DNA of 64,000 bases from a virus: IMG/VR virus record IMGVR_UViG_3300006155_000004. One strand, written 5' to 3'. A model generated the notes under the pieces. That model was not told the origin of the DNA. It made no database searches and was given only the letters and a program-made list of their open reading frames with translations. Positions within the stretch are counted from its first letter, which is position 1. The number at the start of each line of letters is the position of its first letter. Position numbers and translations under genes: made by a program. Positions 8,622 through 50,437 of the stretch are shown piece after piece.

Positions 8622-8632
8622 GAGGGGTTGAA

Positions 8633-8863: not shown

Positions 8864-8874
8864 AAGGAGAACCT

Positions 8875-9300: not shown

Positions 9301-10159
9301 AAGATTGACGGATAAATCATATTGTATTTCTGATATTCGGGCAATACAGAAAGAAACATTTTATGAGGATATGGAATGCAGGCGTGGCTTTGACTTGTAT
9401 ACAGGAAAAGCCATTGACAAGCTGGCAGAATATGAGGATTTAGAGGAACAAGGGAAACTGCTGAAATTGCCAGTTGCAGTGGGAACCTGGGTATATGAAG
9501 TTTATCGGTTCATGGATGAGGGTGTTTGTGAGATTGATGTTCATAAAATCAAGCTAGAAGATTTAGAGAATATCGGAAAAACCGTTTTCCTCACCATAGA
9601 AGAAGCCGAGGATAAGCTGGCAGAAATGGAGGGGGAAGAAGCGAACGAGCGGAGAGTGATTATATACATAAGTGCTACCAAGCAAACCACAACCGCAAAA
9701 TGGCATTTAGAGGGAGTATATCCGTCTGATTTATGGGTTGCGATATTACATGATATTTCAGATTTAAAGCCATTTTTGGGAGAATCAAAAGTAATCATTA
9801 AGTTTAGCGATAGAACCAGGGAGGCCGTGTTTTATTTTAGCGGCGGAAAACTGATACAAGCAGGTCAAAACGAATTAGATTTTTGGGTTAAGAAATCAGA
9901 AAAGGAAAGCGAGGAAAAATCAATGTTACATAATGTGACCGTAAAACATGAGGAAGACAAGGTGCTTGAAGAATTTTGGGTAATGAGGGCGGTAAAAGAG
10001 GGGAAATTACCATTTGATTTCAAAAAGACAGTTATTGACGAAAGAAAATTAGACCATGAGCCGAGCAAAAGCGAAATCGCACAATTCCTAGCCGACAGCA
10101 AAGCGGATTTCGTGTCGGTGGTGCAGAATTACAGATTTGAAAATGAGTTGCCGTTTTAG
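9284..10159 (+). CDS. hypothetical protein (same paralog family, N-terminal half)
   Basis: ORF track; LKLPVAVGTWVY...IGKTVFLTIEEAEDKLAEM. Confidence 0.7.
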   Translation: MERLTERLTDKSYCISDIRAIQKETFYEDMECRRGFDLYTGKAIDKLAEYEDLEEQGKLLKLPVAVGTWVYEVYRFMDEGVCEIDVHKIKLEDLENIGKTVFLTIEEAEDKLAEMEGEEANERRVIIYISATKQTTTAKWHLEGVYPSDLWVAILHDISDLKPFLGESKVIIKFSDRTREAVFYFSGGKLIQAGQNELDFWVKKSEKESEEKSMLHNVTVKHEEDKVLEEFWVMRAVKEGKLPFDFKKTVIDERKLDHEPSKSEIAQFLADSKADFVSVVQNYRFENELPF

Positions 10160-10177
10160 GGAAAGGAGATTGAGGGA

Positions 10178-10504
10178 ATGAAACTTTATATTTTTAAAAC
10201 ATCGAATTGGAGTCATAAGCCAAAACTTACAATGGAAGAATTTGAGGTTGAGGAAAAACCGAAAACCTATGTATGCAAAGGAAGACGATTTAACAAAGAA
10301 GATATAGAAAAGGTAAGCGGATATGACTTTGATGAGTGTATGCTACTTGAAAACAATCCGTCTAAGGCTTGCGAAATTCTTTTGAAAAGAAAAGAGTTGG
10401 AATTGAAATGGGCGGAGGAAAAGGTTGCTGATAAGAAAGCAGAAATCGAGAATTTGAAAAGATATATCAGAAGAGAAAGTGAGAGGAAAGGCAATGATTG
10501 TTAA
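10178..10504 (+). CDS. hypothetical protein
   Basis: ORF track; AAAGGAG RBS. Confidence 0.65.
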   Translation: MKLYIFKTSNWSHKPKLTMEEFEVEEKPKTYVCKGRRFNKEDIEKVSGYDFDECMLLENNPSKACEILLKRKELELKWAEEKVADKKAEIENLKRYIRRESERKGNDC

Positions 10505-10748
10505 GAGAAGAATTTTTGACGAATTAAACAAGAGATTAAAAGAGGCGAGGGAAGAAAACGAAGAATTACGGAAGAAAAATAATGATTTGAACAGAAGAAT
10601 AAAAAGTGAGAGAGTAACGGGGTGTTGGTGCAGGACCTGTAAAAATTCCGTTGCAGAAACACATCAAACTGTATACGGAGATTACAAAACATATGATTGT
10701 TTGCTTGATGTGAAATGCAACGATTATGAGAGATTGGAGGATAAATAA
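10494..10748 (+). CDS. hypothetical coiled-coil/Cys protein
   Basis: In-frame ATG 10494 with GAGAGGAAAGG RBS inside ORF 10479..10748. Confidence 0.6.
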   Translation: MIVKRRIFDELNKRLKEAREENEELRKKNNDLNRRIKSERVTGCWCRTCKNSVAETHQTVYGDYKTYDCLLDVKCNDYERLEDK

Positions 10749-10749
10749 T

Positions 10750-11172
10750 ATGAATCGTGTAATTTTAATGGGACGCTTGACAAAAGACCCAGACGTAAGA
10801 TATTCACAAGGCAATAATCCAATGGCGATAGCAAGGTACACGCTAGCAGTTGAGCGAAAATTCAAGCGTGACGGCGAGGCGAACGCAGATTTTATTAACT
10901 GTATCGCATTTGGGAAGAATGGCGAGTTTGCGGAGAAGTATCTGCATAAGGGGATTAAGATAGCAGTTGTCGGTCGTATTCAGACGGGAAGTTATACAAA
11001 TAAAGACGGCGTAAAAGTATATACAACAGATGTGGTTGTGGAAGAACATGAGTTTGCAGAGAGCAAGAACACAAATCAACAGAATGAGCAAAGCAACAGA
11101 CCGCAACCAAGTAATTCTGATGATGACTTCATGCAAATTCCCGACAATATGGAGGACTTGCCATTCAACTGA
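10750..11172 (+). CDS. ssb: single-stranded DNA-binding protein
   Basis: MNRVILMGRLTKDPDVRY OB-fold start, Q/N-rich linker and acidic ...DLPF tail typical of bacterial/phage SSB. Confidence 0.9.
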   Translation: MNRVILMGRLTKDPDVRYSQGNNPMAIARYTLAVERKFKRDGEANADFINCIAFGKNGEFAEKYLHKGIKIAVVGRIQTGSYTNKDGVKVYTTDVVVEEHEFAESKNTNQQNEQSNRPQPSNSDDDFMQIPDNMEDLPFN

Positions 11173-11185
11173 TTGGAGATATGAA

Positions 11186-11599
11186 ATGATTTGGAATTTA
11201 GTAATAATAGGAATAATATTTCTCGTTGGATTTTTGATAGATCACATTATCAAATACAAGGAATTGAAATTTGACAATATGATTTTGAAAAAACAAGTTG
11301 ACGAAATCAGAAACAACTTCAAGATGTACAGAAGTATTTCTGATTGCGAAAATGCAGAGGTTGAAAAGTTAAAGAGCCAAAATGCAGAACTTCTTATGGA
11401 AAATATGCAACTCAAATCTCTTATTGGTGCATATCGGAATGTATATGGTTATCAGGACAAATATTCAACACCGCAAATTCCAAAAGATACGGTTGATGCT
11501 GTCCGATACGCCATGAAACACGCCCATCCAGACAACGGAGGAAATGCAGAAGATTTCATAAGGTTTCAAAAGTGCTATGAGGAATTGACGAGGAAGTGA
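11186..11599 (+). CDS. membrane-anchored coiled-coil protein with J-domain-like HPD motif
   Basis: In-frame ATG 11186; N-terminal TM helix; C-terminal YAMKHAHPDNGGNAEDFIRFQKCYEEL resembles the DnaJ J-domain helix II-III signature. Confidence 0.55.
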   Translation: MIWNLVIIGIIFLVGFLIDHIIKYKELKFDNMILKKQVDEIRNNFKMYRSISDCENAEVEKLKSQNAELLMENMQLKSLIGAYRNVYGYQDKYSTPQIPKDTVDAVRYAMKHAHPDNGGNAEDFIRFQKCYEELTRK

Positions 11600-11609
11600 G
11601 GTTGAGAAG

Positions 11610-11951
11610 ATGAAAGAAGCATTAGAGAAAATAAGAGATTTGTGCAGGAAGAATGATGAAGATAGCCACAGATACGAAAAAGAGGGAAATTTATCAATGG
11701 CTATCATGGCAGGAGTTAGAACACAGTGTTATGAGGAATGTTTTGAAATTGTGAACAGCTGTGAAAACAAAGATAAAGATGAGGAATTGAAGCACTTTCT
11801 TGAAATTGAAATCGAGCAGGCAGAAAAACGAATGAAAGAAGAATCCAACCCTACATTTAACGGACTTATCGTAGGACATGAATTTCAAATTGAGTTGAAC
11901 AAAGGACATATACGCTTTTGCAAAGAAGTGTTGAAAATGTTAGCAAAATAA
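11610..11951 (+). CDS. hypothetical protein
   Basis: ORF track; GTGAGG RBS. Confidence 0.65.
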   Translation: MKEALEKIRDLCRKNDEDSHRYEKEGNLSMAIMAGVRTQCYEECFEIVNSCENKDKDEELKHFLEIEIEQAEKRMKEESNPTFNGLIVGHEFQIELNKGHIRFCKEVLKMLAK

Positions 11952-12024
11952 AATTTAAGGATTGGAGGTAATGGAGGTTTGATGGCACAGATGAATTTAT
12001 TTGATTTTATGGGAGGTTGAGGGA

Positions 12025-12383
12025 ATGGCATACGACTTAAATTCAGACTTTGACATAGAACAGCACAAGAAAACTTTTATTCATTATCTCGAAGTGGTGA
12101 TTGATGGAAACGGAAAGATAATGTATGCCGTTCCGTCACATCAAGAAAAGCTGATTACCCTTGCTCGTGAAAAGCTGAATGTCACAAGAGAAGAATTAAA
12201 TGCCATTGTCCGCAGGAGTATTATTTTGACTTTATGGCATGGCTATGCAAAATAAGTGGTACTTGTGCGGTTTGGGAGAATTTTATTCAGTGCGACAATC
12301 TGACAGAACGGCAGATGAGGGCGTTGCAGATGTTGAAAGATAATGGATTGTATTTAGGAGAAATTCCGAAGGAGGTTGATTGA
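12025..12383 (+). pseudogene. hypothetical gene with an apparent frame break (frame 1 to 12255, protein-like continuation in frame 0 to 12383)
   Basis: ATG 12025 with GGGAGG RBS. Frame 0 is open 12171-12383 and reads ...CHCPQEYYFDFMAWLCKISGTCAVWENFIQCDNLTERQMRALQMLKDNGLYLGEIPKEVD with no RBS of its own. Confidence 0.45.
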
Positions 12384-12385
12384 AT

Positions 12386-12595
12386 ATGAAAAATAAAATT
12401 AAGAAAATTTTGAATTTTGTTACAGATATAGTACTTATATATTCTGTACTTATGATGATTTTTGTTGTGTTTTTCTTTTTGGTTGCAATACCGACTGTTT
12501 CGTTACCATTTTTGATACTTTCTGTGGCGATTAAAATTATTCCGATGATAAGCAAGAAAAAGGAGGACACCCAAAATGCTAACCATGCCAATTAA
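12386..12595 (+). CDS. small membrane protein
   Basis: ATG 12386, 10 nt after GGAGG; two hydrophobic helices. Confidence 0.6.
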   Translation: MKNKIKKILNFVTDIVLIYSVLMMIFVVFFFLVAIPTVSLPFLILSVAIKIIPMISKKKEDTQNANHAN

Positions 12596-19447: not shown

Positions 19448-20308
19448 GTGGATAAATTGAATGGAAATTTCATAAAGATTGACCGAAAAATGCTCGAATG
19501 GGAGTGGTACAAAAACGAGCATACCAAGAATGTGTTTTTACATTGCCTGCTAAAAGCACACTGGAAAGACACAAAGATTGAGGGGAAAACAATTCCGAGA
19601 GGTTCTTTTGTTTCTTCTATAGGAAATATAGCGGAAGAACTTTCGTTGACGCCTATGGAAGTGAGGACAGCATTGAAACATCTAAAATCAACAAACGAAT
19701 TAACAAGCAAAGGAACGAACAGAAATACAGTATTTACGGTAACAAACTATGATTTGTACCAATCAAAAGAACAAGCAGAGCAACAAACAGATAACAAACG
19801 AACAACAAACGAACAACAAACGGATAACGAGCAAATAACAAGCAAAGAACAAACCATTAACAAACCATTAACAACAAATGAAGAATATAAAGAAGATAAG
19901 AATATAAAGAACGAAGAAGAAAGAGAAGAATGTAAAGAATGCAAGAAAGAGATAGAGGACAAGCCGAAGAAAAAAGAGCCGACTGTTTATTATCCAAATG
20001 ACAAGCTACTAAACAGCGCCTTTAAAGAATTTTTGGTTATGAGGAACAAAATCAAGAAACCGATAGCCACCAAGCAGGCATTGACAAGAATGATGAACAA
20101 GATTGAGAAGTTGTCGGGCGGCGATAATGATTTGGCGATAAAGATACTCAACCAATCTACAGACCATTGCTGGCAGGATGTGTATGAGTTGAAAGAGGAT
20201 AAGAAGAATTATCGTTCTTCAAATACAAATTTTCAGAATCAGTCTAAGCAGGCGAAATTTGAGCGATTAATGAACCAAATAAAGGAGGATGAGGCGAGTG
20301 ACAGTTAA
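19448..20308 (+). CDS. phage replisome-organizer / DnaD-like replication initiation protein
   Basis: N-terminal F-x-K-I-D-R-x-M-L-E-W-E-W-Y winged-helix-type segment common in Firmicutes phage organizers; low-complexity T/N/Q linker encoded by DNA repeats. Confidence 0.65.
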   Translation: MDKLNGNFIKIDRKMLEWEWYKNEHTKNVFLHCLLKAHWKDTKIEGKTIPRGSFVSSIGNIAEELSLTPMEVRTALKHLKSTNELTSKGTNRNTVFTVTNYDLYQSKEQAEQQTDNKRTTNEQQTDNEQITSKEQTINKPLTTNEEYKEDKNIKNEEEREECKECKKEIEDKPKKKEPTVYYPNDKLLNSAFKEFLVMRNKIKKPIATKQALTRMMNKIEKLSGGDNDLAIKILNQSTDHCWQDVYELKEDKKNYRSSNTNFQNQSKQAKFERLMNQIKEDEASDS

Positions 20309-26883: not shown

Positions 26884-26980
26884 GAATATAACAAGCTTTG
26901 TTTGAGTTTTGAGCCTTTTTATGGTAAAATATAAACTATATCAAGGCTCTTTTCCTAAACAAAAGAAAGGAGATTTGTCA

Positions 26981-28171
26981 ATGGGAAAAGATTTGAAAGG
27001 AAAGGAGTTGGGTGTTGGGTTAATCCAACGCAAAGACGGGCTGTATCAGGCGAGATATTCTAACAGATGGGGAAAGAGAAAAACTATCTATGGGAAGAAT
27101 CTGCGAGAACTGAGAAAAGAGCTTGCGGAGGCTATTGCGGGAAACGAGAACTTTGCAAGCACAAAATACGAAATAACGCTTGATAAGTGGTTTGACAGAT
27201 GGATGGAGGTTTATAAAGAGAAAAGTATAAGACCAAACACCAAGAGAGAATATACGCACATATACAAGAAAAATATTTCTCCGTACATAGGAGAAAGAAA
27301 CATCAATTCTCTTGTCAAATCCGATATTCAAAGAATTATTGATAGGGCAAGTGACGACAGTTATGCTTATGAGCGGCAGAATAAAATCAAAGTGATTCTT
27401 CGAGATATGCTGCAGAGGGCAGTTGAAGATAATCTTGTTGTCAACAATCCCGTGAGCGGTATAAAACTTAGGGCAGATAAGGAAATCAAGGCAAAATCAT
27501 TGACAGTTGAAGAACAATCATTATTCTTTGATTATTGCCGCAACACATTTTATGATAACCTTTTCAACGTGGCGGTTAATACGGGATTACGGCCGGGCGA
27601 GCTATTTGCCTTGCAATTTTCGGACATAGATCTTGATAATGGGCTTATAGACGTAAACAAAACGCTTGTTTACCAAAAATATCTTGATGATGAATGTAAA
27701 ACGTTTCATGTCGAACCGCCAAAAACTAAGAAAAGCTACAGAAAAGTGCCAATCAACAGCGTTTGCAGAAAGTTTTTAGAAAGTCAATTAGAATTGAAAT
27801 CAGTCGTATCGCAGAAAAGACCAAAACAACAGAATGACTACGTATTTGTGACAAAGTTTAATACGCCTCTTAACTCTGTTATTTATTCGGATGCGATAAA
27901 AGCCGTAATTCGCCAGATAAACCTAGCAAGGCCGTTTGATAATCAGTTTGAGGTATTCAGCGGACATACATTCCGGCACACATTTGCTACTAGGTGCTTC
28001 GAGAGTGGGGTGGACGCAAAAGTGGTGCAAAGCTATCTTGGTCATGCAAGCCTTAAAATGACAATGGATTTATATACACATGTCACAGAGGAAAAATCAA
28101 TGAAAGACATAGAAAAAATTGTTCCGGGGATCGAAAACAAGGTCGTGAACATAAGGAGAAAAATGGCTTAA
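26981..28171 (+). CDS. int: tyrosine site-specific integrase
   Basis: In-frame ATG 26981 with AAAGGAG RBS; GLRPGEL (Arg), HTFRHTFAT (H-x-x-R), LGHASLKMTMDLYTH (His/Tyr). Confidence 0.9.
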   Translation: MGKDLKGKELGVGLIQRKDGLYQARYSNRWGKRKTIYGKNLRELRKELAEAIAGNENFASTKYEITLDKWFDRWMEVYKEKSIRPNTKREYTHIYKKNISPYIGERNINSLVKSDIQRIIDRASDDSYAYERQNKIKVILRDMLQRAVEDNLVVNNPVSGIKLRADKEIKAKSLTVEEQSLFFDYCRNTFYDNLFNVAVNTGLRPGELFALQFSDIDLDNGLIDVNKTLVYQKYLDDECKTFHVEPPKTKKSYRKVPINSVCRKFLESQLELKSVVSQKRPKQQNDYVFVTKFNTPLNSVIYSDAIKAVIRQINLARPFDNQFEVFSGHTFRHTFATRCFESGVDAKVVQSYLGHASLKMTMDLYTHVTEEKSMKDIEKIVPGIENKVVNIRRKMA

Positions 28172-28453
28172 ATGGTGTAGCGATGGTGTAGTGATGGTGT
28201 ATTCTTAAAAATAAATGTTATAAAATCAATGTTTTTAATAATTTTTGTAACATAAATGGTATAATTATTATGTATACCAGAGTACTCCGTATGAGCTGTA
28301 GGAATATTTATGAAATAGCGGTTTTATGCGGGTTTTCAATGCGTTTTCATTTTTACGAAACCTCACATAATTTAACAATTATTCACGGAAAAACGGTGTA
28401 TTAATGGTGTAAATGGTGTAGTAAATGGTGCAGTAAATTTTAAAAATGGTGTA
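28172..28453 (+). repeat. attP-like field: 6 exact and 3 variant direct copies of ATGGTGTA in two clusters flanking about 190 bp
   Basis: Exact copies start at 28172, 28183, 28194, 28404, 28413, 28446; variants at 28256, 28393, 28425; all in the same orientation, directly after the int stop. Confidence 0.6.
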
Positions 28454-41699: not shown

Positions 41700-41855
41700 T
41701 TATTGCATGGTGCATTAAAAATTCATTTCATAATGAATTAAAAATGAATTGCATAATGAATTTCATAATGCATTAATAATGCATTTAATAATTCATTTAT
41801 AACTGCATTACATAAATGCATTTTTAATGAAGTTAGTAAATGCATTATGAACTTT
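41700..41855. repeat. AT-rich array of about 13 ATGCAT/ATGAAT-core octamers
   Basis: Reiterated (A/T)AATGCATT, AATGAATT, ATTCATT units every 10-13 bp directly upstream of the RHH gene at 41875. Confidence 0.65.
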
Positions 41856-41874: not shown

Positions 41875-42531
41875 ATGAGTGGAACGGAACAAAATAAACT
41901 TGATAAGTTGAACGCGCGTTATAAGCGTCAAAATGACAAGATACAAAAGAATTATGACAGAGTATCGGCAGTTCTTCCAAAGGGCAGTACAGATCGCATA
42001 AAAGCGTTAGGGATAAGCACAAATCAGTTTATAAACAGTGCGGTATCTTCCGAACTGGACAAGCTGGAAAGCGGTAAAAATCCAAAGAGAAAGCCAAAAG
42101 AGCCAACGCCTGACAAGGTAAACGGAAAGCCTGTTTACAGGTTCTGGAGAGAAGATGAATATATCAAGCGTGGCGGTCAGTGGTGGCATGAGGTTGTATT
42201 TTTCCATGATGACATGGAACTAAATGACTTGTTTATTAAATTTCTTGATATTTCGGCAAAGGAAAATGAAAACTATAAAGACGGATGCCGCCTGTGGTTT
42301 GATTTGATAAATCCGCAAAGGGAAGTAGGTAAAATAAGTGATTTGGAATTATTAAAAATGACAGATGAAGAAATAGGCAAAATCCCTGATGAACTGCTAG
42401 AGGAAACCATAGACCAGAACGAGGAATTAAAGGCGCTTTTGAAAGATTGTGTGTATAATGGCAATTATAAATCGTTGCTTGAATTTATTGGATTTTACGA
42501 ACTTGTGGAAACGACAAAAGACAATAAATAA
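41875..42531 (+). CDS. protein with N-terminal RHH domain and acidic C-terminal domain
   Basis: KNYDRVSAVLPKGSTDRIKALGISTNQFINSAV matches the RHH of 29546..29725; ACGGAGG RBS. Confidence 0.6.
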   Translation: MSGTEQNKLDKLNARYKRQNDKIQKNYDRVSAVLPKGSTDRIKALGISTNQFINSAVSSELDKLESGKNPKRKPKEPTPDKVNGKPVYRFWREDEYIKRGGQWWHEVVFFHDDMELNDLFIKFLDISAKENENYKDGCRLWFDLINPQREVGKISDLELLKMTDEEIGKIPDELLEETIDQNEELKALLKDCVYNGNYKSLLEFIGFYELVETTKDNK

Positions 42532-42686
42532 TTGCATTTACGAAATGCAGTTAATAAGTGATATTAATAATACAAGCCGTCTATATCGCAAGCATAGTCG
42601 GCTTAAATTGATATATGGCATATGTTCTTGAATGATTGTATTATATGCCATATATCCGCAATATGTCAAGTAGGAGTGCGGCAGAA

Positions 42687-43010
42687 ATGAAGCATGGAAA
42701 TAAATATTATTTGCAACTAAGCAGGAAGATTTTCACAGAGGAATACAGCAATTTGTCAAACAACGCAAAATGGCTTTTCGTGGTTTTGAATGAACTGGAA
42801 CAGGAATTTTGCGGAGATAAAGCAGAGGACTATTTTTATCGTTCCAATGAGGAATTGGCGAAAGACTGCAATTTCGGACTGTCAACGCTCAAGAAAGCCA
42901 AATCCGATCTATTAAAGACCGATTTAGTCCAGTCGCGGCAAGGGCATTTTGTAGACGATTTCGGAAAGAAAAGCGAAAAGCATTTTACATACTACCGAAT
43001 AAAGTCATAA
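42687..43010 (+). CDS. small winged-helix replication-initiator-like protein
   Basis: In-frame ATG 42687 with TAGGAG RBS; YYLQLSRKIF...LSNNAKWLFVVLNE...SNEELAKDCNFGLSTLKKAKSDLLKTDLV pattern; iterons start 5 bp after the stop. Confidence 0.45.
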   Translation: MKHGNKYYLQLSRKIFTEEYSNLSNNAKWLFVVLNELEQEFCGDKAEDYFYRSNEELAKDCNFGLSTLKKAKSDLLKTDLVQSRQGHFVDDFGKKSEKHFTYYRIKS

Positions 43011-43014
43011 TTAG

Positions 43015-43085
43015 CAAAGGCCAATATTTATACCATTGCCCAAAGGCCAAAATATAACCCACGGCAAAGGTCAGATTTTAACCCA
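43015..43085 (+). repeat. three 21-bp direct iterons (CAAAGGYCARNNTNTANNCCA), spacing 26 and 24 bp
   Basis: 43015-43035, 43041-43061, 43065-43085; about 15/21 positions invariant. Confidence 0.7.
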
Positions 43086-43454
43086 CGTATATAAGAACTG
43101 TATTTTATATTAAGAATTGGATTATAATTATCTAAGATTTAGTAAATAACATAGTATTGCTAAAGCAATACGTTGTATATTTATAATATATACAATAAAA
43201 CATAGCACAGTATATATTATTATCCACAGAGTATATTATACCAGTAGTCTATAGCGTACATATAGCCATAGTGTGCAGTGTTAGCCAATACAGTATATAT
43301 ATTCATATATCACAGAATATTAATCCAATACAGTAAATCTTTGGTCAATAAAGTATAACATACACACATTACCGGTATGTATTAAATTATTATAATACGC
43401 GCGCGGATATATATTATATACAGCTTGCAGAATATATGTTCTGTAAATCCACAG

Positions 43455-43483
43455 TTGACAGATAAATAAATCTATGATATGGT
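43455..43483 (+). promoter_or_regulatory. sigma-70-type promoter
   Basis: TTGACA, 17-nt spacer, TATGGT upstream of the TerS-like gene. Confidence 0.45.
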
Positions 43484-43613
43484 TTTAATAATTTAACAGA
43501 TTTACTTAACTTTTTTGGATGGAATTGTAGAGGGAAACTAAAACCCGGAGGTCATGACGCTATCATGGCTTTCTGGGTTATTTTTATTTTTAGGCAGAAT
43601 GGAGGTGTGGAAA

Positions 43614-44162
43614 GTGGCAGATAAAGAGTATAAGCGTAAAGGATATGCGCCGGATTTGTCAGAAACAGATAACATAATGGCGGTTACTGATATTCTTTTA
43701 ACGACTGTTAAATCTGGCAGACCTGCGGAATACCCAGAAGATGGGCATGGGCTTGAAAGATTCAAGAAAACGACGGTTGAATACTTGGAGCATGTGCAGG
43801 AAATAAACAGTGGTGACGATGTGTCAAAGAAAGTCATTCCGGATATTGAATCATGGGCTTGCTATTTAGGCATTACAAGGGCTACATTGGCCACATATGC
43901 AAGGACAAGGGGAGAGGATTGGAAGCAGTTTATAGCGGTTGTCAAGAATGGCATAGCGGCGGTTAAGAAAGACGCTGCATTCCATCAGCAGATAGCCCCG
44001 GTTATGGCCATGTTTGACTTTACAAACAATCACGACTACGTGAATACAAATGAGTTTAAGTTAAATGCAAGTGTTACAGAAGATGCAAAGAAAGTATTAA
44101 CCGCTAAAGAACTTCCTAAATTGGGAGATGTGGATAGTGCAGAAGTAAATGATAATATATAA
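43614..44162 (+). CDS. terminase small subunit-like protein
   Basis: GTG 43614, 8 nt after GGAGG; ...IESWACYLGITRATLATYARTRGEDWKQFIAVVKN...MAMFDFTNNHDY resembles the HTH plus oligomerisation core of TerS families. Confidence 0.55.
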   Translation: MADKEYKRKGYAPDLSETDNIMAVTDILLTTVKSGRPAEYPEDGHGLERFKKTTVEYLEHVQEINSGDDVSKKVIPDIESWACYLGITRATLATYARTRGEDWKQFIAVVKNGIAAVKKDAAFHQQIAPVMAMFDFTNNHDYVNTNEFKLNASVTEDAKKVLTAKELPKLGDVDSAEVNDNI

Positions 44163-45177: not shown

Positions 45178-45750
45178 ATGAAGGTCGGATATGTCAGAGT
45201 TAGCACAGTAGAGCAGAACGAGGACAGGCAGCTAAAAGGACTTGAAAACTTCGGGATTGACAAATGGTACATTGAAAAGATTTCTGGTAAGAACACGAAC
45301 AGACCAGAGTTTCAGAAAATGATGTCAGAAGTCAAAGAGGGAGATATAATCTACGTTCACGCATTGTCAAGGCTTGCAAGGAATGCAAGGGATTTGCTGA
45401 ATATTCAGTATGAATTACAGGAAAAAGGCGTGAATTTAGTTAGCAACAAAGAAAGCATAGATACAACAACCCCTGTTGGCAGAGCGTTTTTTGGAATGTT
45501 GGCAGTGATGAACCAGTTTGAGCGTGAGGTCATGTTGGAAAGACAGGCAGAGGCTATCGCTGTTGCGAAAGAAAAAGGCACATACCGTCACAGGGGGGAT
45601 AAAAAAATTGACGTGGATTTGTTTGACGAGAATTATAGCCTTTACATTGACGGAAACTTGACTAAGGTTGAGTTTGCAAAGAATATAGGCGTTTCCAGAC
45701 CCACTCTTGATAAGATTTTGAAGAAAAGAGAGGGAGGAGAGGAAATATGA
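45178..45750 (+). CDS. small serine recombinase (resolvase/invertase family)
   Basis: MKVGYVRVSTVEQNEDRQ catalytic-serine motif; 190 aa with C-terminal HTH (NIGVSRPTLDKIL). Confidence 0.9.
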   Translation: MKVGYVRVSTVEQNEDRQLKGLENFGIDKWYIEKISGKNTNRPEFQKMMSEVKEGDIIYVHALSRLARNARDLLNIQYELQEKGVNLVSNKESIDTTTPVGRAFFGMLAVMNQFEREVMLERQAEAIAVAKEKGTYRHRGDKKIDVDLFDENYSLYIDGNLTKVEFAKNIGVSRPTLDKILKKREGGEEI

Positions 45751-46217
45751 AAATATTTGGTTATGTCAGGGATAAAGACGGAAATTTTGAAAATCGCAAA
45801 AATAAAGTCATTGAATTTTCAAAACAGATGGATTTTTCGATAGATAAATTTATCTGTGAAAAATCTTCTGAAAACTACGAAGATATGACAGAGATTAGAA
45901 AGCTACTGGAAGACGAAAAGGATTTTGTTCTTTTAGTTTCTGACGCATCGGATTTATTTGAAGATGACTATGCCTGTGTAAAACTCTTACCGATTTTAGA
46001 GAAAAATAATGTGTTTTTGGTAGACGCATATTATCCTAATTTGGACTATCGAATGATGATGGAGAAAAACTGTAAAGATTGTCCGTCAAACTTCTTGCAA
46101 AATCGCCTTATGGTAATATTGGAAATATATTTGAGGAAAAAGTATGATGGGAGCGATGACAATATGGTTTATGGTGATATGAGGACAAGGCTTTCTGAAT
46201 GGAAAAACAGCTTGTAA
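45747..46217 (+). CDS. resolvase N-terminal-domain-like protein lacking the catalytic serine
   Basis: MKIFGYVRDKDGN aligns with MKVGYVRVSTVEQ (Ser to Lys); no C-terminal HTH; ATGA overlap. Confidence 0.55.
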   Translation: MKIFGYVRDKDGNFENRKNKVIEFSKQMDFSIDKFICEKSSENYEDMTEIRKLLEDEKDFVLLVSDASDLFEDDYACVKLLPILEKNNVFLVDAYYPNLDYRMMMEKNCKDCPSNFLQNRLMVILEIYLRKKYDGSDDNMVYGDMRTRLSEWKNSL

Positions 46218-46328
46218 ACCAAACAACAAGTTCTAACCAACAAAAGATAAAATCTCAAACCACTCCCGATTAAATCAATCAAAACACCAAAGCTACCAAC
46301 AACAAAATCAAATATAAGGCGGTGCAAC

Positions 46329-46511
46329 ATGAACACAGTACAAGAAAACATAGAACTTTTCCGAAAACTGCAATCAGCACTTATCGAGGACAAAGTTTTG
46401 TATGACGCATTTGCCGCAAGTATAGAAAGTGCAATAAAAGAACTTCCACCACACATAGACAGAGAATGTGCGGCAAAGAGAATAGCGGATAGGATTATTG
46501 GGAGGGGATAA
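46329..46511 (+). CDS. hypothetical small protein
   Basis: ORF track; AAGGCGG RBS. Confidence 0.5.
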   Translation: MNTVQENIELFRKLQSALIEDKVLYDAFAASIESAIKELPPHIDRECAAKRIADRIIGRG

Positions 46512-46513
46512 GA

Positions 46514-46684
46514 ATGTGGGTAAAAGGAAAGCCAAACATAAGTGGAAATTACAAAGTTAGATACAAGGGAAAAGAGGGAAGAGACGACTATACAACTTCG
46601 GGCGGTGGTCATTGGTGGAATACAGGAACAATTCACGACCAAGAAGAGGTTGAATATGATCCAGCCAGTTTTAGGGAATTATAA
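46514..46684 (+). CDS. hypothetical small protein (56 aa)
   Basis: Hand-translated; GGGAGGGG RBS. Confidence 0.5.
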   Translation: MWVKGKPNISGNYKVRYKGKEGRDDYTTSGGGHWWNTGTIHDQEEVEYDPASFREL

Positions 46685-46688
46685 TTTT

Positions 46689-46760
46689 AGGGCTATCGCC
46701 AAACGGTAAGGCACAGCGCTTTGACTGCTGTATTTCCGGGTTCGAGTCCTGGTAGCCCTG
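46689..46760 (+). tRNA. tRNA-Gln (anticodon UUG)
   Basis: 7-bp acceptor AGGGCTA/TAGCCCT, anticodon loop CTTTGAC, T arm CCGGG-TTCGAGT-CCTGG. Confidence 0.8.
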
Positions 46761-47165
46761 TTGCCGCGACTTGCGCCGGAGTTGCGCGGGAATAAAGTTA
46801 ATGGGTCGCGGTATTAAATCTGAAAGCGAGGGAGTTTTGATGATTATTGCCATCTTTGGGATAATTGTTTTTCAACTCGTGGAACGGATTGCCATAGTCG
46901 AGAAATCCTCAACAGAGGTTTTGAGGAAATGCATCTGTATGTTAGGGTTTTCATACAATGCAATTCCGGCAAGGCATGAAGTCCCGTGAAAGCCATATCT
47001 GCAAGAAGATAATCCGCAAAATGCTGAAAAGCCAGTATTGATTATTAAAAATTATAATTGAGATAATGAACCAACAAAACTATCAAACATTGCGGATATG
47101 GCGGATTTAAGAAAATATATAAACTTATCGGCGGCGGCTTGTTGGTCTCGTTGCCGCCGGTTTAT

Positions 47166-47238
47166 GCGGGCATAGCTCAATCGGAAGAGCACTGGACTCC
47201 AAAACCAGAAGTCGTAGGTTCGACCCCCTCTGCCCGTG
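47166..47238 (+). tRNA. tRNA-Trp (anticodon CCA), non-canonical stems
   Basis: Acceptor GCGGGCA/TGCCCGT, D arm GCTC..GAGC, loop CTCCAAA; A-A at 31:39 and two mismatches in the T stem (GTAGG/CCCTC). Confidence 0.55.
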
Positions 47239-47390
47239 CTTAGTATCAAATATTTGTATTATTCGATATCTCCTTTTAACCCCGTAGTGGAATGCTGTTA
47301 AGAGCCATCGCACGGCTTGCGGGGATTCGGTGGAGCGACCACCATTATAAAAACAATCCGTGTAAAAATGTCACAAGTCTTGCAGGCAGG

Positions 47391-47648
47391 ATGTCTAATG
47401 CCGAGGGGAAACTTGGAAAGATAATTTTCGGTTCATTTGTTGGAGATCCAGGAGGGAAAAACTATATTGAACTGCCAATAAAGAGTGCGGACGTTTTTAG
47501 CAACAATATACTAGCGATCAATGGTGATTTTGTTGTGTATGGCGGCTTCGTTATTGGTTTCAACTTCTACAAAGAAAATGTCGTGTGTATATTATCTGCT
47601 GCGAGAAGCGGGGCCATAAGGATCAATTATATATATTTCCATGTTTAG
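47391..47648 (+). CDS. possible beta-rich small protein (85 aa)
   Basis: In-frame ATG 47391 inside ORF 47292..47648; weak RBS. Confidence 0.35.
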   Translation: MSNAEGKLGKIIFGSFVGDPGGKNYIELPIKSADVFSNNILAINGDFVVYGGFVIGFNFYKENVVCILSAARSGAIRINYIYFHV

Positions 47649-47719
47649 GCGCGTCAGTTGAAAGATAAGTGAAATGGTTTGTGTGGCGGGGAGGAACCCG
47701 CAAAAGGGAGGATATGGGA

Positions 47720-47902
47720 ATGGCGAGCACGACAAGAAAACCAATTCCAAGGAAGTATGAAGAGTGCCTAAATTGCCCGAACGATATTCCTGGTTATGGA
47801 AAGTGTAAGATAAAGTTTGACAATTTTTATTATCGGAGAGGGAAAAATAATCGTTGTTTCCATTGTCAAGAGGAAATCAGAAAATTGAAATTAGGATTCT
47901 AA
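47720..47902 (+). CDS. small zinc-ribbon protein
   Basis: ATG 47720, 8 nt after GGGAGG; CLNCP...CFHC. Confidence 0.5.
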   Translation: MASTTRKPIPRKYEECLNCPNDIPGYGKCKIKFDNFYYRRGKNNRCFHCQEEIRKLKLGF

Positions 47903-48010
47903 AATCCATTTTAAGCCATTTTAACCCCACGCCCTATAATTTCATCACCGAAACACAAAAGAGGGCGTTTTGGGGCAAATAGGAGCGTTAGAGAGGTATC
48001 AAAACAATAA

Positions 48011-48093
48011 GGGAAGTTATACAGTAGGGGCAGCGGGGCAGTCTGTAAAACTGTTATCTTTGGATTCGGGCGGTTCGACTCCGCCACTTCCCA
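48011..48093 (+). tRNA. tRNA-Tyr (anticodon GUA), long variable arm
   Basis: Perfect acceptor GGGAAGT/ACTTCCC, loop CTGTAAA, perfect T arm GGCGG-TTCGACT-CCGCC; D stem poorly defined. Confidence 0.75.
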
Positions 48094-48211
48094 TTTTGAT
48101 AATACTTGCCATTATCAAATCAAGCACAGCATGAGCCTTTAGGGTATAGTGCGGTAGTCTGATAAACTATGTGGGGAATGGGAGGCAAGTTTCCAAACCC
48201 CATGCTTGTAT

Positions 48212-48283
48212 GGTGTCATAGCCAAGTGGATAAGGCAACAGACTGCAACTCTGTTATCGAGGGTTCAAATCCCTCTGACATCT
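48212..48283 (+). tRNA. tRNA-Cys (anticodon GCA)
   Basis: Acceptor GGTGTCA/TGACATC, loop CTGCAAC, perfect T arm GAGGG-TTCAAAT-CCCTC. Confidence 0.8.
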
Positions 48284-48456
48284 CTTTTTATAAAAACCTG
48301 TCGGTCAAGCCTATATGGTGAGCAAAAATAGAGAATCAGTAAAGCCTTAAATGACCGTAAAACCCGTGATAGCCCCGGACACGCAAGGGATTAGTTTCCC
48401 GGATACGGAAATCGTCACGAATTGCCGCATAGTTGTGAAAGGTCTATGCGGAATAT

Positions 48457-48530
48457 GCGGGAGTACCCAAGTGGTGATTGGATGCGTCTTATACACGTCA
48501 ACGCCGCAGGTTCGATTCCTGCTTCCCGTA
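48457..48530 (+). tRNA. tRNA-like, anticodon UAU (Ile/AUA), irregular anticodon stem
   Basis: Acceptor GCGGGAG/TTCCCGT, perfect T arm GCAGG-TTCGATT-CCTGC, loop CTTATAC; the anticodon stem gives 5 pairs only if T48498 is bulged. Confidence 0.45.
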
Positions 48531-48635
48531 CTTAACAGCGGAATAGCCCGACGGGGCAAAAAGTGGCAAACTCCACAAGCCGCCTGTCCGTTGTTTAACA
48601 AAATTGTGGAGAGAAAAGCATAGTGGAGGTGCGAT

Positions 48636-49367
48636 ATGGAAAGAAAATCCAACAGAAAATTAGCAACAGAAAGACAGATTTCGTATGCAAATGCAATTTC
48701 AAGCACGCTTGGTTCTGGTCTTTCTTTTTCAAAAGATGATAGTTATTACGAAGTAAACAAATTCATAACAGAAAACGAGGAAAAATATAAAAACAAAGGT
48801 AATGAAAAACTTGCAAGTATAAGGCAAATTGACTACGCAAACGCTATATCCAATTTCTGCAATATCGGCATTTCTTTTGATGAAAATAGTACATACATAG
48901 AAGTTGCAGATTTCATATCGAAAAATAAAGACGAATACATGAGAATGAGATGGAGAGAGTCCATTTGCGAATATAAAAAAACGGAAAACAGCATTGATGT
49001 TCCAAAAGAAAGCATGTTGTTTATTTGTGATAACTTGTTTAAGAAACATGGGTTATACGCATTTATCGGAAAAGATGACATGGTTTTGTATATTGGAAAA
49101 TCAATAGATTTATCATCAAGAATACCAACATCGTACAAAGAAAGAAAAGAATATGCAAAAATAAATAAGATTATGTATTATGTTGATGAAAACATGGCAA
49201 ACGTAAACATAATGGAAATATTGCTGATAGCAGAATATAACCCGGTTTTAAATACAGAAAGTAAAACTGAAGATGTTCCCACAAAATTTCACAGCGGGAT
49301 TGATATATTAAACGATTTCAAAGAGATACCGCATTTTTGTGATTGTGAAATGGGGGTGGGGGCATGA
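48636..49367 (+). CDS. GIY-YIG domain protein with duplicated N-terminal module
   Basis: GLYAFIGKDDMVLYIGKS...R...E; N-terminal repeats ATERQISYANAIS / ASIRQIDYANAIS. Confidence 0.6.
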   Translation: MERKSNRKLATERQISYANAISSTLGSGLSFSKDDSYYEVNKFITENEEKYKNKGNEKLASIRQIDYANAISNFCNIGISFDENSTYIEVADFISKNKDEYMRMRWRESICEYKKTENSIDVPKESMLFICDNLFKKHGLYAFIGKDDMVLYIGKSIDLSSRIPTSYKERKEYAKINKIMYYVDENMANVNIMEILLIAEYNPVLNTESKTEDVPTKFHSGIDILNDFKEIPHFCDCEMGVGA

Positions 49368-50437
49368 GTGATTTAGTTGCCGTATCTGAAAAAGAAATTG
49401 AAGAAAAAGTTAAGTTTTTATCTTCCGCAAAATGCAACCATACACAGCATATGTATATTGACATTACTGGAGATTTGGTGCAGGGCACGCTTTTGTCAAG
49501 GATAATGTACTGGTTTTCTGTTGATAAAAACAAAAAATCAAAAGTCCGCATATTTAAAGACGATTATTTTTGGATTGCAAAACAGCGCAAGGACTGGTGG
49601 GAAGAAATACGGATAACCGAAAGGCAGTACGATAAAGCCATTAAAGAGTTAGAGAAAAAAGGATTTGTTGTACTTGCTAAATATAAATTTAACTCTATGC
49701 CAACGATACATATAAGACCAGATTATGAAAATATAAATTCTGCAACAAAGGAATGGGAAAATCAGTTGCGAAAAGAAATTGTTGCAGAGTACAAAAGAGA
49801 ATTACAGAATGAGACAGACGGGAATAACACAAAATGTAATTCCCAAGGGATTGGCACAAAGTGCAAAACGGGAGTTACGCAAGAAAGCAATCTTTTAACA
49901 TTGATTACTAACAATGACTACTCTGACATTAATTACATACCAGAAACTACAAAGGCAGAAACATTATCTAAAGATAATGACGAGGCAGATACAATCTCTT
50001 CAAAAAAGAGCTTGCCGACCTACGCCAAAAAGAAAACCAGATCAGAGTTGATGGAACTTGAAGCCGATATGTGCAGACGGTTTGTAAAGATTGGCAGTCA
50101 GTATGACATAACCGACACAGCCCTTAAAAACATAGTCAATGCGTTTGCGAGGTATTCTAGTAAATTTACAGAGCGTACAGAGAAAATACATCCGATTCTG
50201 AAAGATAAAACTCTGGAAAAGATATTTGTTACACTGGCGACAATATCGGATACAGAGTACAGCCATTTTGAAAATGTAGCGGACTATGAGCCAGACATCG
50301 ACGGATTGAGTTATCTTGACAAAATGGTGGACGAACACTTTAGCTCCGAACATGGAGGCAGTACAGACTGGCATATCTCTCATTTTGCAAGACCTGATTA
50401 TCTAGAAAAGATGGCACAGCATATTGTTGAGTGGTAG
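49364..50437 (+). CDS. winged-helix replication-initiator-like protein
   Basis: LLSRIMYWFS...FWIAKQRKDWWEEIRITERQYDKAIKELEKKGFVV pattern. Confidence 0.5.
   Translation: MSDLVAVSEKEIEEKVKFLSSAKCNHTQHMYIDITGDLVQGTLLSRIMYWFSVDKNKKSKVRIFKDDYFWIAKQRKDWWEEIRITERQYDKAIKELEKKGFVVLAKYKFNSMPTIHIRPDYENINSATKEWENQLRKEIVAEYKRELQNETDGNNTKCNSQGIGTKCKTGVTQESNLLTLITNNDYSDINYIPETTKAETLSKDNDEADTISSKKSLPTYAKKKTRSELMELEADMCRRFVKIGSQYDITDTALKNIVNAFARYSSKFTERTEKIHPILKDKTLEKIFVTLATISDTEYSHFENVADYEPDIDGLSYLDKMVDEHFSSEHGGSTDWHISHFARPDYLEKMAQHIVEW

Follow-up and report, generated by a model that had tools for sequence, protein, structure and literature searches.

A gene for a 107-aa winged-helix (wHTH) protein in the 64-kb window (the whole 64,000-nt stretch of viral DNA analysed, probably a Lachnospiraceae prophage) is followed by a module that we found 3′ of the wHTH gene in more than 50 non-redundant loci. 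The module consists, in order, of 2-5 semi-palindromic iterons, 1-4 TAAGAAT boxes, a 22-nt motif and, 3 nt further on, a palindrome. It is carried in gut Clostridia by temperate phages and by one or more satellites that encode a capsid; the carrier of locus L010 is the culturable Clostridium sp. AF27-2AA. Together, gene and module (Table 1) form an undescribed variant cassette that looks most like a replication origin, a putative function. We tentatively read the region as a self-contained, portable origin-type cassette, which is plausible rather than firm. The initial annotation had likened the region to a theta replicon with initiator, iterons and AT-rich DNA; this layout proved to be kept in dozens of relatives, but the protein corresponds to the DNA-binding domain only. 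Replication is proposed with caution because the DNA-binding domain stands alone, because no helicase, loader or primase gene ever adjoined the wHTH gene in the contexts examined, and because the cassette holds the position of a late activator in many relatives.

Table 1. Features of the cassette and of its 3′ flank in the window.
Feature	Coordinates	Strand	Remarks
wHTH gene	42687..43010	+	107 aa; stand-alone homologue of the RepA_N / lambda-O-type origin-binding domain, without C-terminal domain
Three direct iterons	43015..43087	+	43015-43037, 43041-43063, 43065-43087; central A/T tract in each
AT-rich segment with two TAAGAA boxes (43092-43097, 43111-43116)	43088..43132	+	Candidate DNA-unwinding element
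Near-invariant 22-nt motif TAAGATTTAGTAAATAACATAG	43133..43154	+	Last box; exactly 22 nt past the previous box
Perfect 7-bp palindrome GTATTGC-TAAA-GCAATAC	43154..43171	.	Begins 3 nt past ...TAAC
AT-rich field (GC 0.29) with degenerate ~21-nt periodic repeat (CCA..AGTATA type)	43185..43450	.	Repeat excess
Promoter, leader, terminator and RBS ahead of the TerS-like gene	43455..43614	+	Independent transcription unit 3′ of the cassette
TerS-like gene	GTG 43615 (probable start) to 44162	+	Weak match to P22 gp3-type TerS

The start codon of the wHTH gene was confirmed, since homologues of its product begin with the identical MKHGN. That product (pI 8.5) had been called Rep-like, and it matches the N-terminal domain (NTD) of RepA_N proteins both by profile (4PTA, E = 3e-5) and by fold. 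A profile built from 97 homologues matched the RepA_N NTD structures 4PTA (3.1e-5), 4PQL, 5KBJ and 4PT7, with E-values ranging from 3e-5 to 1e-3, and PHROG families of DnaD-like proteins and replication initiators matched the window protein at 1.6e-6 to 5e-4. When its AF2 model (pLDDT 80.6) was compared with the PDB by Foldseek, RepA_N NTDs were the best fold matches (TM ~0.62); the top matches among viral models were a phage 'replicon initiation protein' and lambda GpO N-terminal models. Pfam scored the window protein at 13.3 bits for RepA_N (cut-off 30) and 15.6 bits for HTH_36 (cut-off 25), and precomputed matches to PF06970, PF13730 or PF03428 exist for a few homologues. The kinship to RepA_N is at the superfamily level; the curated PF06970 threshold was missed.

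The stand-alone family comprises 335 clusters, nearly all of 95-125 aa. The host-specific C-terminal domain, which in pSK41 Rep is essential for replication, is absent: the window protein stops at residue 107, and its relatives in the 335 clusters are similarly short. Neighbourhoods examined in the relatives contained no conserved partner gene beside the wHTH gene. Public sources annotate the family only as 'hypothetical protein', and a literature search found no paper on this stand-alone family. Deposited phages and plasmids yielded no close relative at either the nucleotide or the protein level; the sole match, a weak one, was to the N-terminus of the replication initiation protein of Streptococcus phage Javan73, a full-length relative whose gene lies between those for a helicase and DnaI. 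A collection of 72,556 plasmids held no family member, and the cassette is thus not an autonomous plasmid replicon.

Rechecking of the repeats showed that the coordinates and sequences in the initial annotation were all exact. Its direct 21-mers are three repeats of 21-23 nt, CAAAGGCCAATATTTATACCA (43015), CAAAGGCCAAAATATAACCCA (43041) and CAAAGGTCAGATTTTAACCCA (43065), spaced by 26 and 24 nt in an array that begins 5 nt past the stop codon of the gene. A degenerate iteron pattern occurred at these three places only in the whole 64 kb, against a mean of 0.43 in shuffled controls, none of 100 of which attained three copies; the comparison has to be read in the light of a pattern derived from the same data. 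Relatives prove the iterons better than shuffles do, because the array is kept in them. L001 and L009 have three copies with the identical 26/24 spacing, and analogous arrays of 2-5 copies with locus-specific sequence were found 3′ of the homologous gene in more than 40 other loci. Across loci the iterons are semi-palindromic around an A/T tract and repeat directly, in 2-5 copies, with a period of 24-26 nt. RepA_N iterons have likewise been described as direct repeats that are semi-palindromic around an A/T tract (PMC7145576). In pSK41 rep the Rep boxes are positioned right after the NTD-coding sequence (PMC5703833), so that they and the window iterons both begin straight after the NTD-coding part. 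Divergence of the iterons correlated weakly with that of the protein (Mantel r 0.21-0.23, p 0.001-0.004), a relationship that shared descent confounds.

Iterons vary between loci; the AT-rich element that adjoins them is conserved. Origins are known in which initiator-specific iterons are combined with an AT-rich tract whose single-stranded form the initiator binds as well (PMC7466680, PMC4081077). Two features of iteron-type theta origins were present. Iterons lie next to an AT-rich, unwinding-type element in the window, an arrangement kept in more than 40 loci, and the candidate unwinding element contains repeated conserved elements of the 13-mer type. The AT-rich DNA noted earlier beside the iterons is indeed among the most easily melted of the 64-kb window: the 50-mer at 43101 is its second least stable (-47.7 kcal/mol against a mean of -63.4 +/- 4.6), and 9 of the 20 least stable 50-mers fall in 43086-43176. 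Across loci this element contains 1-4 sequence-conserved TAAGAAT(W)GACT boxes and a final TAAGAT box.

The 22-nt motif is near-invariant across loci, with the consensus TAAGATTTAGTAA(A/G)TAACATAG, and is present once in the window and once per locus. It lies on the strand of the gene wherever the scan finds it; L034 has an inverted, degenerate version. A search with the motif alone found 41 viral contigs, 33 of which have a wHTH gene just upstream, ending 113-138 nt before the motif in 31 cases. The GTATTGC/GCAATAC palindrome was confirmed at 43154-43171 and folds as single-stranded DNA with -8.2 kcal/mol (z = -4.3). Stems of at least 6 bp starting 2-5 nt past the motif were found in 28 of 47 non-redundant loci (26 at +3), compared with 4.3 +/- 1.9 in shuffles. 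The stem sequence is locus-specific, with 26 different stems and 4-5 pair types per position, and its pairs are almost all Watson-Crick with no strand bias. The G-U strand asymmetry (39 vs 35) did not discriminate between an RNA and a DNA hairpin, and an Rfam scan of 42400-43800 gave nothing meaningful.

Each genome has one cassette, either before terS-terL or a few genes past a cro-like gene and ahead of recombination/replication genes. These varied positions suit a position-independent cis element. In the loci whose contexts were examined the cassette was always at a boundary between transcription units. It occupies the late-activator position, directly 5′ of terS/terL, in at least 11-13 loci; no terminase lies 3′ of it in L059, L060, L002 or the L005 island. 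In L059 a gp3-type terS is found ~3.3 kb upstream on the opposite strand, and in the window TerL is 14 kb away. Orientation also varies, the whole module being inverted in L034 and the iterons alone in L005. L070 has only convergent genes downstream, a DnaC-like loader among them, and L072 has a terminator ~25 nt past the hairpin. The L037 hairpin is itself followed by a T-run, and in L100 terS/terL are preceded by the motif and hairpin only. A search for conventional signals in four relatives found no sigma-70 promoter inside the module and no terminator between gene and module. A promoter for the next operon does not fit L034, L005, L070 and L072, given inversion, convergent genes or a terminator, nor does it fit the window, L001, L009, L002 and L083, which have their own strong promoter downstream.

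The satellite context favours an origin. The L005 island (~8 kb) encodes an integrase, a cI/cro-type switch, a scaffold and a major head protein, and the cassette is its sole replication-like function; known satellites carry their own initiator and origin, and PLE employs a RepA_N protein (PMC7145576). Several host phages have complete DnaD-like/DnaC-like initiation modules elsewhere, and initiators of the host phage's own were seen in L060 (DnaD-like and DnaC-like), L058 (Lin1244_N) and the window, where gene 49364-50437 encodes a second Rep-like protein. Direct pairwise comparison of this protein with the 107-aa protein, its candidate paralogue, gave no similarity, and a search for iterons in or near 49364-50437 found none.

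The main alternative, although unlikely, is a transcription activator derived in evolution from a Rep DNA-binding domain and functionally analogous to the Ltr late regulators (RinA, ArpU, LtrA-C). It would bind the repeats past its own gene and switch on a non-canonical promoter in the conserved segment (TWGACT, 16 nt, TAGTAA). Transcription would begin near ACATAG, give the RNA a stabilising 5′ hairpin and drive the next operon, which is late in many phages and delayed-early in others. The cassette does have the layout established by experiment for Ltr systems, namely a small, mildly basic protein whose gene ends the early cluster, with repeats directly past the stop that are needed for activation (PMC3753634). 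Ltr-dependent start sites lie 28 or 118 bp before terS, and in Gram-positive phages the late activator and its repeats are kept directly upstream of terS (PMC3753634), matching the terS/terL genes straight downstream of at least 11-13 of our loci. In all loci but one the motif points at the downstream genes, with 25-90 nt to the next start codon. Also in keeping with an activator are the strict 22 nt from penultimate to last box, the hairpin 3 nt past the motif, the lack of a terminator or other promoter between gene and terS in L058, L041 and L037, and the motif and hairpin that stand alone ahead of terS/terL in L100. The TWGACT-N16-TAGTAA arrangement, of constant spacing across loci, is however weak: the module contains nothing recognisable as a sigma-70-type promoter, and the conserved final T is missing from TAGTAA, the candidate -10. 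The iteron-to-motif distance moves in ~18-nt steps with box number (35, 52, 70 nt), so helical phasing would change, and the protein folds as an origin-binding domain does, unlike the sigma-r4-like Ltr proteins. The activator reading is weakened by the inverted module of L034, the exclusively convergent genes of L070, the terminator right past the hairpin in L072, and a canonical sigma70_r4/Ltr-like (phrog_36) gene 1-4 kb upstream in six class-A lineages (L011, L030, L033, L036, L037 and L058). The window lineage, moreover, has a separate strong promoter and its own terminator before the next gene.

Some other regulatory nucleoprotein element built from a Rep domain is likewise improbable, though it would accommodate several of these observations. 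Such an element might be a transcriptional roadblock or insulator at an operon boundary, its occupancy dropping when the protein is titrated by more genome copies. It might instead modulate another origin as a replication-control (handcuffing) site, or be a nut-like RNA element, made of a conserved linear box and a variable hairpin and transcribed from the operon upstream. RepA_N NTDs tetramerise and can bridge DNA (PMC5703833), and the protein here is only such a DNA-binding and oligomerising domain. The constant position at transcription-unit boundaries, the absence of a terminator between gene and module, the terminator downstream in the window lineage and the mosaic junctions at the cassette edge would all fit. 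In boxA/boxB a conserved linear motif is followed by a hairpin, and the window module, with its linear motif and variable-sequence hairpin, recalls this anatomy. A roadblock would leave the conserved, highly unstable box repeats unexplained, however, and the nut-like version sits poorly with a hairpin that has none of the G-U strand bias expected of an RNA element and with a region to which Rfam assigns no known RNA family. The initial annotation had also raised the possibility that the repeats are pac/cos elements for the adjacent TerS. The next ORF of the window does match P22 gp3-type TerS weakly, terS is directly downstream in many relatives, and lambda cosB likewise has three repeated sites for a winged-helix domain. 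Nonetheless a packaging site is very improbable, because the same motif lies ahead of at least four unrelated TerL families (Terminase_6, Terminase_3, GpA, TerL_ATPase) and several TerS types. The terminase-free contexts 3′ of the cassette in L059, L060, L002 and the L005 island and the 14 kb to TerL in the window speak against it as well, and the repeats track the wHTH gene and not the terminase type.

As an origin-type cassette, the region might work as follows. Homology shows the 107-aa protein to be a stand-alone copy of the iteron-binding winged-helix domain of RepA_N / lambda-O-type initiators; it would bind the three semi-palindromic iterons past its own stop, probably as a dimer or higher oligomer. 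Binding would bend the DNA and melt the adjacent unstable TAAGAA-box segment. Either the conserved N-terminal half of the protein or a conserved host factor could then make sequence-specific contacts with one strand of the boxes and the 22-nt motif, in analogy to RK2 TrfA and F RepE on the 13-mers of their unwinding elements. The palindrome may mark the edge of the opened region or serve as a loading or priming signal. The C-terminal domain of pSK41 Rep is essential for replication (PMC5703833). Because the window protein is without the C-terminal domain that recruits host factors in RepA_N plasmids, helicase loading would speculatively need other help. It might come from DnaD-type proteins of phage or host, which share this fold in their N-domain, or from transcripts reading through from the gene, in the manner of the pAMbeta1 origin. 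A bolder and rather doubtful version is a minimal, domain-stripped replicon in which the 107-aa domain, having no recruiting domain, would nucleate initiation at a portable origin: its DnaD-NTD-like fold would let it co-assemble with DnaD-type loaders of host or phage, while the conserved half of the protein held one strand of the conserved TAAGAA boxes; the cassette would then be a second, exchangeable origin common to unrelated phages and a capsid-encoding satellite of gut Clostridia, and a satellite could fire such an origin on its helper's replication proteins.

Several observations point against an origin. The fixed 22-nt and 3-nt spacings and the 25-90 nt to the next start codon are a promoter-like geometry. 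The protein has no C-terminal domain, the hosts have initiators of their own, the plasmids yielded no members, and DnaA boxes are neither enriched nor conserved.

Comparison with known systems places the cassette between several of them. Its winged-helix domain and the form of its iterons resemble those of the RepA_N plasmid initiators (pSK41 Rep, pTZ2162 RepA; 4PTA, 4PQL, 4PT7, 5KBJ), but these have a linker and a C-terminal domain, which in pSK41 is essential and binds DnaG, and the 107-aa protein has neither. Unlike in RepA_N plasmids, the window iterons are not part of the gene, they are joined by a conserved box/motif/hairpin module, and the stand-alone family occurs in phages and islands only, the plasmid collection having no member. 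PLE RepA and its origin, from a Vibrio cholerae satellite, have in common with the cassette the RepA_N-type DNA-binding domain, iterons in a non-coding region and a phage-dependent mobile element as carrier; PLE replication relies on helper-phage functions. PLE RepA, however, is a full-length protein that includes a C-terminal domain; it stems from another phylum, and the conserved TAAGAA-box/motif module is missing there. With lambda O the protein shares the fold class of the origin-binding N-domain. The cassette resembles ori-lambda and lambdoid origins, in which 4-6 iterons, imperfect inverted repeats, lie beside an AT-rich tract that the initiator contacts as single-stranded DNA, and in class-B loci the wHTH gene is a few genes past cro, like O. 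Ori-lambda may also have a palindrome alongside its AT-rich tract, a likeness that we kept out of the evidence. The lambda origin lies inside the O gene, though, and the C-terminal domain of O, which recruits P-DnaB, has no counterpart in the 107-aa protein.

Ltr activators (RinA, ArpU, LtrA, LtrB, LtrC) share the small gene, its place 5′ of terS in many loci and the direct repeats (2-4) straight past the stop, which are specific to the cognate protein in Ltr systems and putatively so here. They differ in having a sigma-70 region-4-like C-terminal domain, the 107-aa protein showing instead a RepA_N/O-type winged-helix fold; both kinds of gene occur together in several phages, and the cassette is also found away from late genes and once inverted. 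The pAMbeta1 (Inc18) RepE origin likewise has the initiator site directly 3′ of the initiator's own gene and beside a short melted AT-rich stretch, with no terminator between gene and site, so that read-through from rep could give a primer. RepE itself is large, monomeric and of an unrelated family, and acts at a single site without iterons.

For phages of gut Clostridia, very few of which have a described origin or late-gene switch, the cassette offers a compact, recognisable pair of protein and DNA site, with hundreds of protein clusters, that would be an origin or a temporal switch. As an origin, it would mean that a RepA_N-type DNA-binding domain works without the C-terminal domain essential in pSK41 Rep (PMC5703833), which bears on how RepA_N initiators recruit the replisome, and genetic tools for Lachnospiraceae and their relatives would gain a small replicon part. 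Were it an activator, late regulators would gain a sixth family, unrelated in structure to the others and descended from a replication protein. Either way, such phages and satellites can be looked for in metagenomes with the near-invariant 22-nt motif as a practical sequence tag.

Beyond the universal module, the window lineage has its own repeat field, which is also found in L083. The second repeat family reported there is real, but degenerate and not called by TRF. The field contains 199 pairs of 10-mers with at most 2 mismatches, against 115 +/- 26 in shuffled sequence (1 of 200 shuffles attains 199), and the spacings cluster at ~20, 40, 60, 84 and 105 nt. The repeat reported to occur twice, CCAATACAGTA, is at 43285 and 43325, its sole two copies in the window. 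Conservation of the field in L001 and L009 is 91%. It contains the sole perfect DnaA box of the window (43220-43228), which is absent from L001 and L009, and DnaA-like boxes showed no enrichment. DnaA boxes are not obligatory for phage origins.

As initially annotated, the stretch has no credible ORF, with none of at least 40 aa on the + strand in 43010-43554. It probably remains non-coding up to ~43614. An intrinsic terminator occupies 43541-43592, and GTG 43615, preceded by the RBS GGAGGTG, is the likelier start of the next gene. This TerS-like ORF matches GP3_package with E = 1.8e-6, just below the cut-off, and phrog_606. The promoter ahead of it is consensus-like (TTGACA, 17 nt, TATGGT with a TG extension), and its leader is ~100 nt. 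L002 and L083 share the arrangement of promoter, leader and terminator. The unit is also kept in L001 and L009, though the gene behind it differs in each, and mosaic junctions fall at the edge of the cassette.

The gene at 42687..43010 encodes a 107-aa protein with an MKHGN start common to its homologues. Curated-family matches were weak, with Pfam HTH_36 (E = 0.014) and RepA_N (E = 0.078) both failing the cut-off. PHROG families named 'DnaD-like helicase loader' or 'replication initiation protein' matched at 1.6e-6 to 5e-4, always confined to their N-terminal ~80 residues. A profile built from 97 homologues matched 4PTA at 3.1e-5 and 4PQL, 5KBJ and 4PT7 at ~1e-3, all experimental structures of the N-terminal domain from RepA_N initiators of staphylococci. 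The best PDB matches of an AlphaFold model (pLDDT 80.6) were likewise RepA_N N-terminal domains (TM ~0.62), with generic winged-helix regulators ranking behind, and its best predicted viral structures were N-domains of phage 'replicon initiation protein' and lambda GpO-type proteins. Profile and structure comparisons thus give the predicted Rep-like fold stronger support than the curated families. The initial annotation of a Rep-like gene holds for the fold but not for a full initiator, as only the N-terminal domain is present. Binding to the Rep boxes and oligomerisation both reside in residues 1-120 of pSK41 Rep, whilst its C-terminal domain binds DnaG and is essential for replication (PMC5703833).

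An exhaustive profile search placed the protein in a family of 335 clusters (148 at E <= 1e-10), nearly all of 95-125 aa; the family does not grade into full-length initiators. Public sources name the family 'hypothetical protein'. Deposited phage and plasmid collections held no members, with one exception: the replication initiation protein (248 aa) of Streptococcus phage Javan73 matches weakly at its N-terminus, and its gene is flanked by a replicative helicase and a DnaI loader.

Three direct repeats follow the wHTH gene at 43015, 43041 and 43065 (spacing 26 and 24 nt), the first 5 nt past the stop codon, as initially annotated. Their degenerate consensus has three matches in the 64 kb, all in the array, against a mean of 0.43 in shuffles, where 0/100 reached three. 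The annotated GTATTGC/GCAATAC palindrome was located at 43154-43171 (GTATTGC-TAAA-GCAATAC); it folds as ssDNA at -8.2 kcal/mol (z = -4.3). Between iterons and palindrome lies a segment of TAAGAA boxes, the second least stable 50-mer of the window, and 9 of the 20 least stable 50-mers fall within 43086-43176. The stretch had also been described as free of credible ORFs, and indeed the + strand contains none of >= 40 aa between 43010 and 43554; the non-coding region probably runs to 43614. The sequence description was accurate overall, and its interpretation as an origin is plausible albeit unproven.

Exact-protein look-ups, protein-based scans of genomes and viral contigs, and a scan with the DNA motif alone together yielded 53 non-redundant loci carrying the wHTH gene. 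All named hosts are Clostridia (Lachnospiraceae, Clostridium sp. AF27-2AA, Ruminiclostridium, Oscillospiraceae, Roseburia, Butyrivibrio and Syntrophomonas), and the Lachnospiraceae locus L009, on a 280-kb MAG contig, is 95% identical. The order of elements past the stop codon is alike in almost all loci. Two to five direct repeats of 24-26-nt period come first, locus-specific in sequence and semi-palindromic about an A/T tract (e.g. CAAAGGTAAAAAAATGAGCCTTTG or AGTATCTCACAGATACT); RepA_N iterons have been described in the same terms (PMC7145576). One to four TAAGAAT(W)GACT boxes follow, 17-20 nt apart, and exactly 22 nt past the last is a near-invariant motif, TAAGATTTAGTAA(A/G)TAACATAG, with the variant GCAA(A/G)TAGC in some lineages. 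Each locus has a single copy of this motif, as does the whole 64-kb window, and the palindrome starts three nucleotides beyond it.

Searching with the motif alone recovered 41 viral contigs. In 33 of them the wHTH gene lies shortly 5' of the motif in the same orientation, and in 31 of these 33 it ends at a distance of 113-138 nt. The other eight comprised three chance matches in unrelated coding sequence, two cut by the locus edge, one full module with the wHTH gene deleted (L069) and two with motif and hairpin alone (L073, L100). Of 47 non-redundant loci, 28 have a stem of >= 6 bp starting 2-5 nt past the motif, compared with 4.3 +/- 1.9 in shuffles. The stems have 26 different sequences, with four to five pair types at each position, and sequence comparison indicates that the hairpin is under selection. 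Its pairs are nearly all Watson-Crick and showed no strand bias, either in G-U counts (39 vs 35 between strands) or in energies, which were equal. Iteron and protein divergence correlated weakly (r 0.21-0.23, p 0.001-0.004), which shared descent could also yield.

The cassette, that is the wHTH gene with this DNA module, occupies two positional classes and one special case. In class A (L011, L022, L030, L033, L035, L037-L041, L043, L044, L058 and others) it lies directly 5' of terS-terL-portal, with at least four large-terminase families represented. In class B (the window, L002, L059 and L060) the wHTH gene lies a few genes past the lysogeny switch, upstream of recombination/replication or other early genes. 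The special case is an ~8-kb island in L005, with the cassette between a cI/cro-type switch and a scaffold and major-head-protein operon and no other replication gene in the island. Genes for a helicase, loader or primase never adjoin the wHTH gene; a DnaD-like (6e-66) and DnaC-like pair lies 5 kb away in L060, and a Lin1244_N protein 9 kb away in L058.

Features around the cassette in the window
Feature	Position	Strand	Remarks
Integrase	26909		
Minus-strand block	39.8-40.9 kb	-	
cro-like gene	41092		
Gene with RHH-like N-terminus	41875		
wHTH gene, then cassette	42687	+	
Promoter	43455-43483		consensus-like: TTGACA, 17 nt, TATGGT with TG extension
Leader	between promoter and terminator		~100 nt
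Intrinsic terminator	43541-43592		
RBS and GTG of next gene	43615 (GTG)		3' of terminator
Weak gp3-type TerS-like gene	43554/43615-44162		
Invertase	45178		
Five tRNAs	46688-48531		
357-aa Rep-like gene	49364		
TerL	57989		
Portal	61503		

The tRNAs (Gln, Trp, Tyr, Cys, Ile-TAT) follow the serine invertase gene (45178-48531 together), between the TerS-like and Rep-like genes and 10-14 kb upstream of TerL. The L005 island is shared by L005-L008, contigs encoding protein P0093, which is on record for 68 contigs. At locus coordinates ~4050-12565 it is integrated, with an integrase, cI/cro-type switch, cassette, scaffolding protein and major head protein (phrog_422 2.4e-64). Genes for terminase, portal and replication are absent, and the island resembles a small phage satellite with capsid genes, from a gut Clostridium.

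We tentatively read the cassette as of origin type, which accounts for more of the data than its rivals. This reading is favoured by the protein's ancestry, by the form and position of the iterons, and by the pairing of variable iterons with a conserved AT-rich part whose conserved elements are repeated in an unusually unstable segment. Those elements may be compared with the RK2 13-mers, of which Rep binds one strand (PMC4081077), and with the AT-rich tract in ori-lambda (PMC7466680). It is further favoured by the single cassette copy per genome, the free position and orientation, and the cassette being the sole replication-like function of the satellite-like L005 island. What weakens it most is that the protein has no C-terminal domain, that its gene is not linked to replication genes, that these phages encode other initiators and that the family is absent from plasmids.

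A serious, if rather unlikely, alternative is that the wHTH protein switches on downstream genes as an Ltr-type late regulator. In Gram-positive phages, Ltr proteins are small products of genes immediately 5' of terS, and the direct repeats to which they bind start right past their own stop codon, with start sites 28-118 bp before terS (PMC3753634); the fixed spacing inside the cassette and the nearby next start codon match this picture. However, the module lacks a sigma-70-type promoter, the iteron-motif distance shifts in ~18-nt steps, and six class-A lineages also carry a canonical sigma70_r4/Ltr-like regulator. Downstream contexts also disagree: in L034 the whole module is inverted yet terS/terL still lie downstream, in L070 only convergent genes follow (including a DnaC-like loader), in L072 an intrinsic terminator stands ~25 nt past the hairpin, and in the window's lineage (L001, L009, L083) and in L002 a separate strong promoter, leader and terminator intervene before the next gene. 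Other nucleoprotein roles are likewise improbable, and terminase diversity and contexts without a terminase speak against a cos/pac packaging site, to which we give almost no weight. A small share of the probability is assigned to none of these readings.

The sigma70_r4/Ltr-like genes (phrog_36, phrog_248; L011, L030, L033, L036, L037, L058) lie 1-4 kb upstream of the wHTH gene and, unusually for Ltr genes, are not adjacent to terS, the cassette lying between.

An origin-binding winged helix, iterons and an AT-rich element are all known kinds of part. What is new is the stand-alone protein family with its highly conserved cis-module, widespread in Clostridia phages, present also in a capsid-encoding satellite and without description in the literature searched.

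Downstream of the module, the field at 43185-43450 (GC 0.29) contains 199 pairs of near-identical 10-mers, where shuffles give 115 +/- 26, with favoured spacings near 20, 40, 60, 84 and 105 nt. Both copies of CCAATACAGTA lie in it, as do 4 of the 23 AGTATA copies present in the window. The second dispersed repeat family initially annotated is thus real by its pair excess, but degenerate, and TRF made no call there. This ~21-nt periodic AT-rich field and the promoter-leader-terminator unit are 91% kept in L001 and L009, whilst the gene behind differs in each, indicating a mosaic junction at the start codon. Both lie outside the universal module. The unit (43455-43614; strong, extended -10), also present in L002 and L083, may encode a small RNA or act as a leader under antitermination control. 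The window's sole perfect DnaA box (43220-43228, inside the field) was treated as chance, being unconserved in relatives and with DnaA-like boxes not enriched. Short alternating CG runs (ACGCGCGCGG, ACGCGCGCGT or ACGCGCGCGCGCGT) occur in very AT-rich DNA near the module in the window (43398-43407), L083 and L034.

Other repeats were seen elsewhere in the window. At 42610-42669, close ahead of the wHTH start codon, GATATATGGCATAT and ATATGCCATATATC form the arms of a perfect 14-nt inverted repeat, 19 nt apart, which overlaps a minus-strand sigma-70 promoter (42669 to 42640) with a 12/12 match to consensus. The site may serve as an operator or drive transcription of a divergent or antisense RNA. 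After a terminator-like hairpin, about 12 ATG(C/A)ATT units of 11-12-bp period in both orientations (41700-41855; TRF period 12, 11.5 copies) lie just upstream of a 218-aa gene (41875-42531) whose product has an Arc/ribbon-helix-helix-like N-terminus (phrog_31631 2e-9), a second protein/repeat-array pair, of operator or centromere-like type. Nine AACAAACAAAT repeats (19766-19879; period 11/22/33) within a DnaD-like/O-like replication gene (19448-20308; phrog_2514 1.7e-18) form a classic in-gene origin layout; that gene is part of another element, to the left of the integrase. Short tandem repeats at 28172-28438 (ATGGTGTAGCG x2.7, GTAAATGGTGCA x2.5), immediately past the end of the integrase gene (26909-28171), may be arm-type sites of an attachment region.
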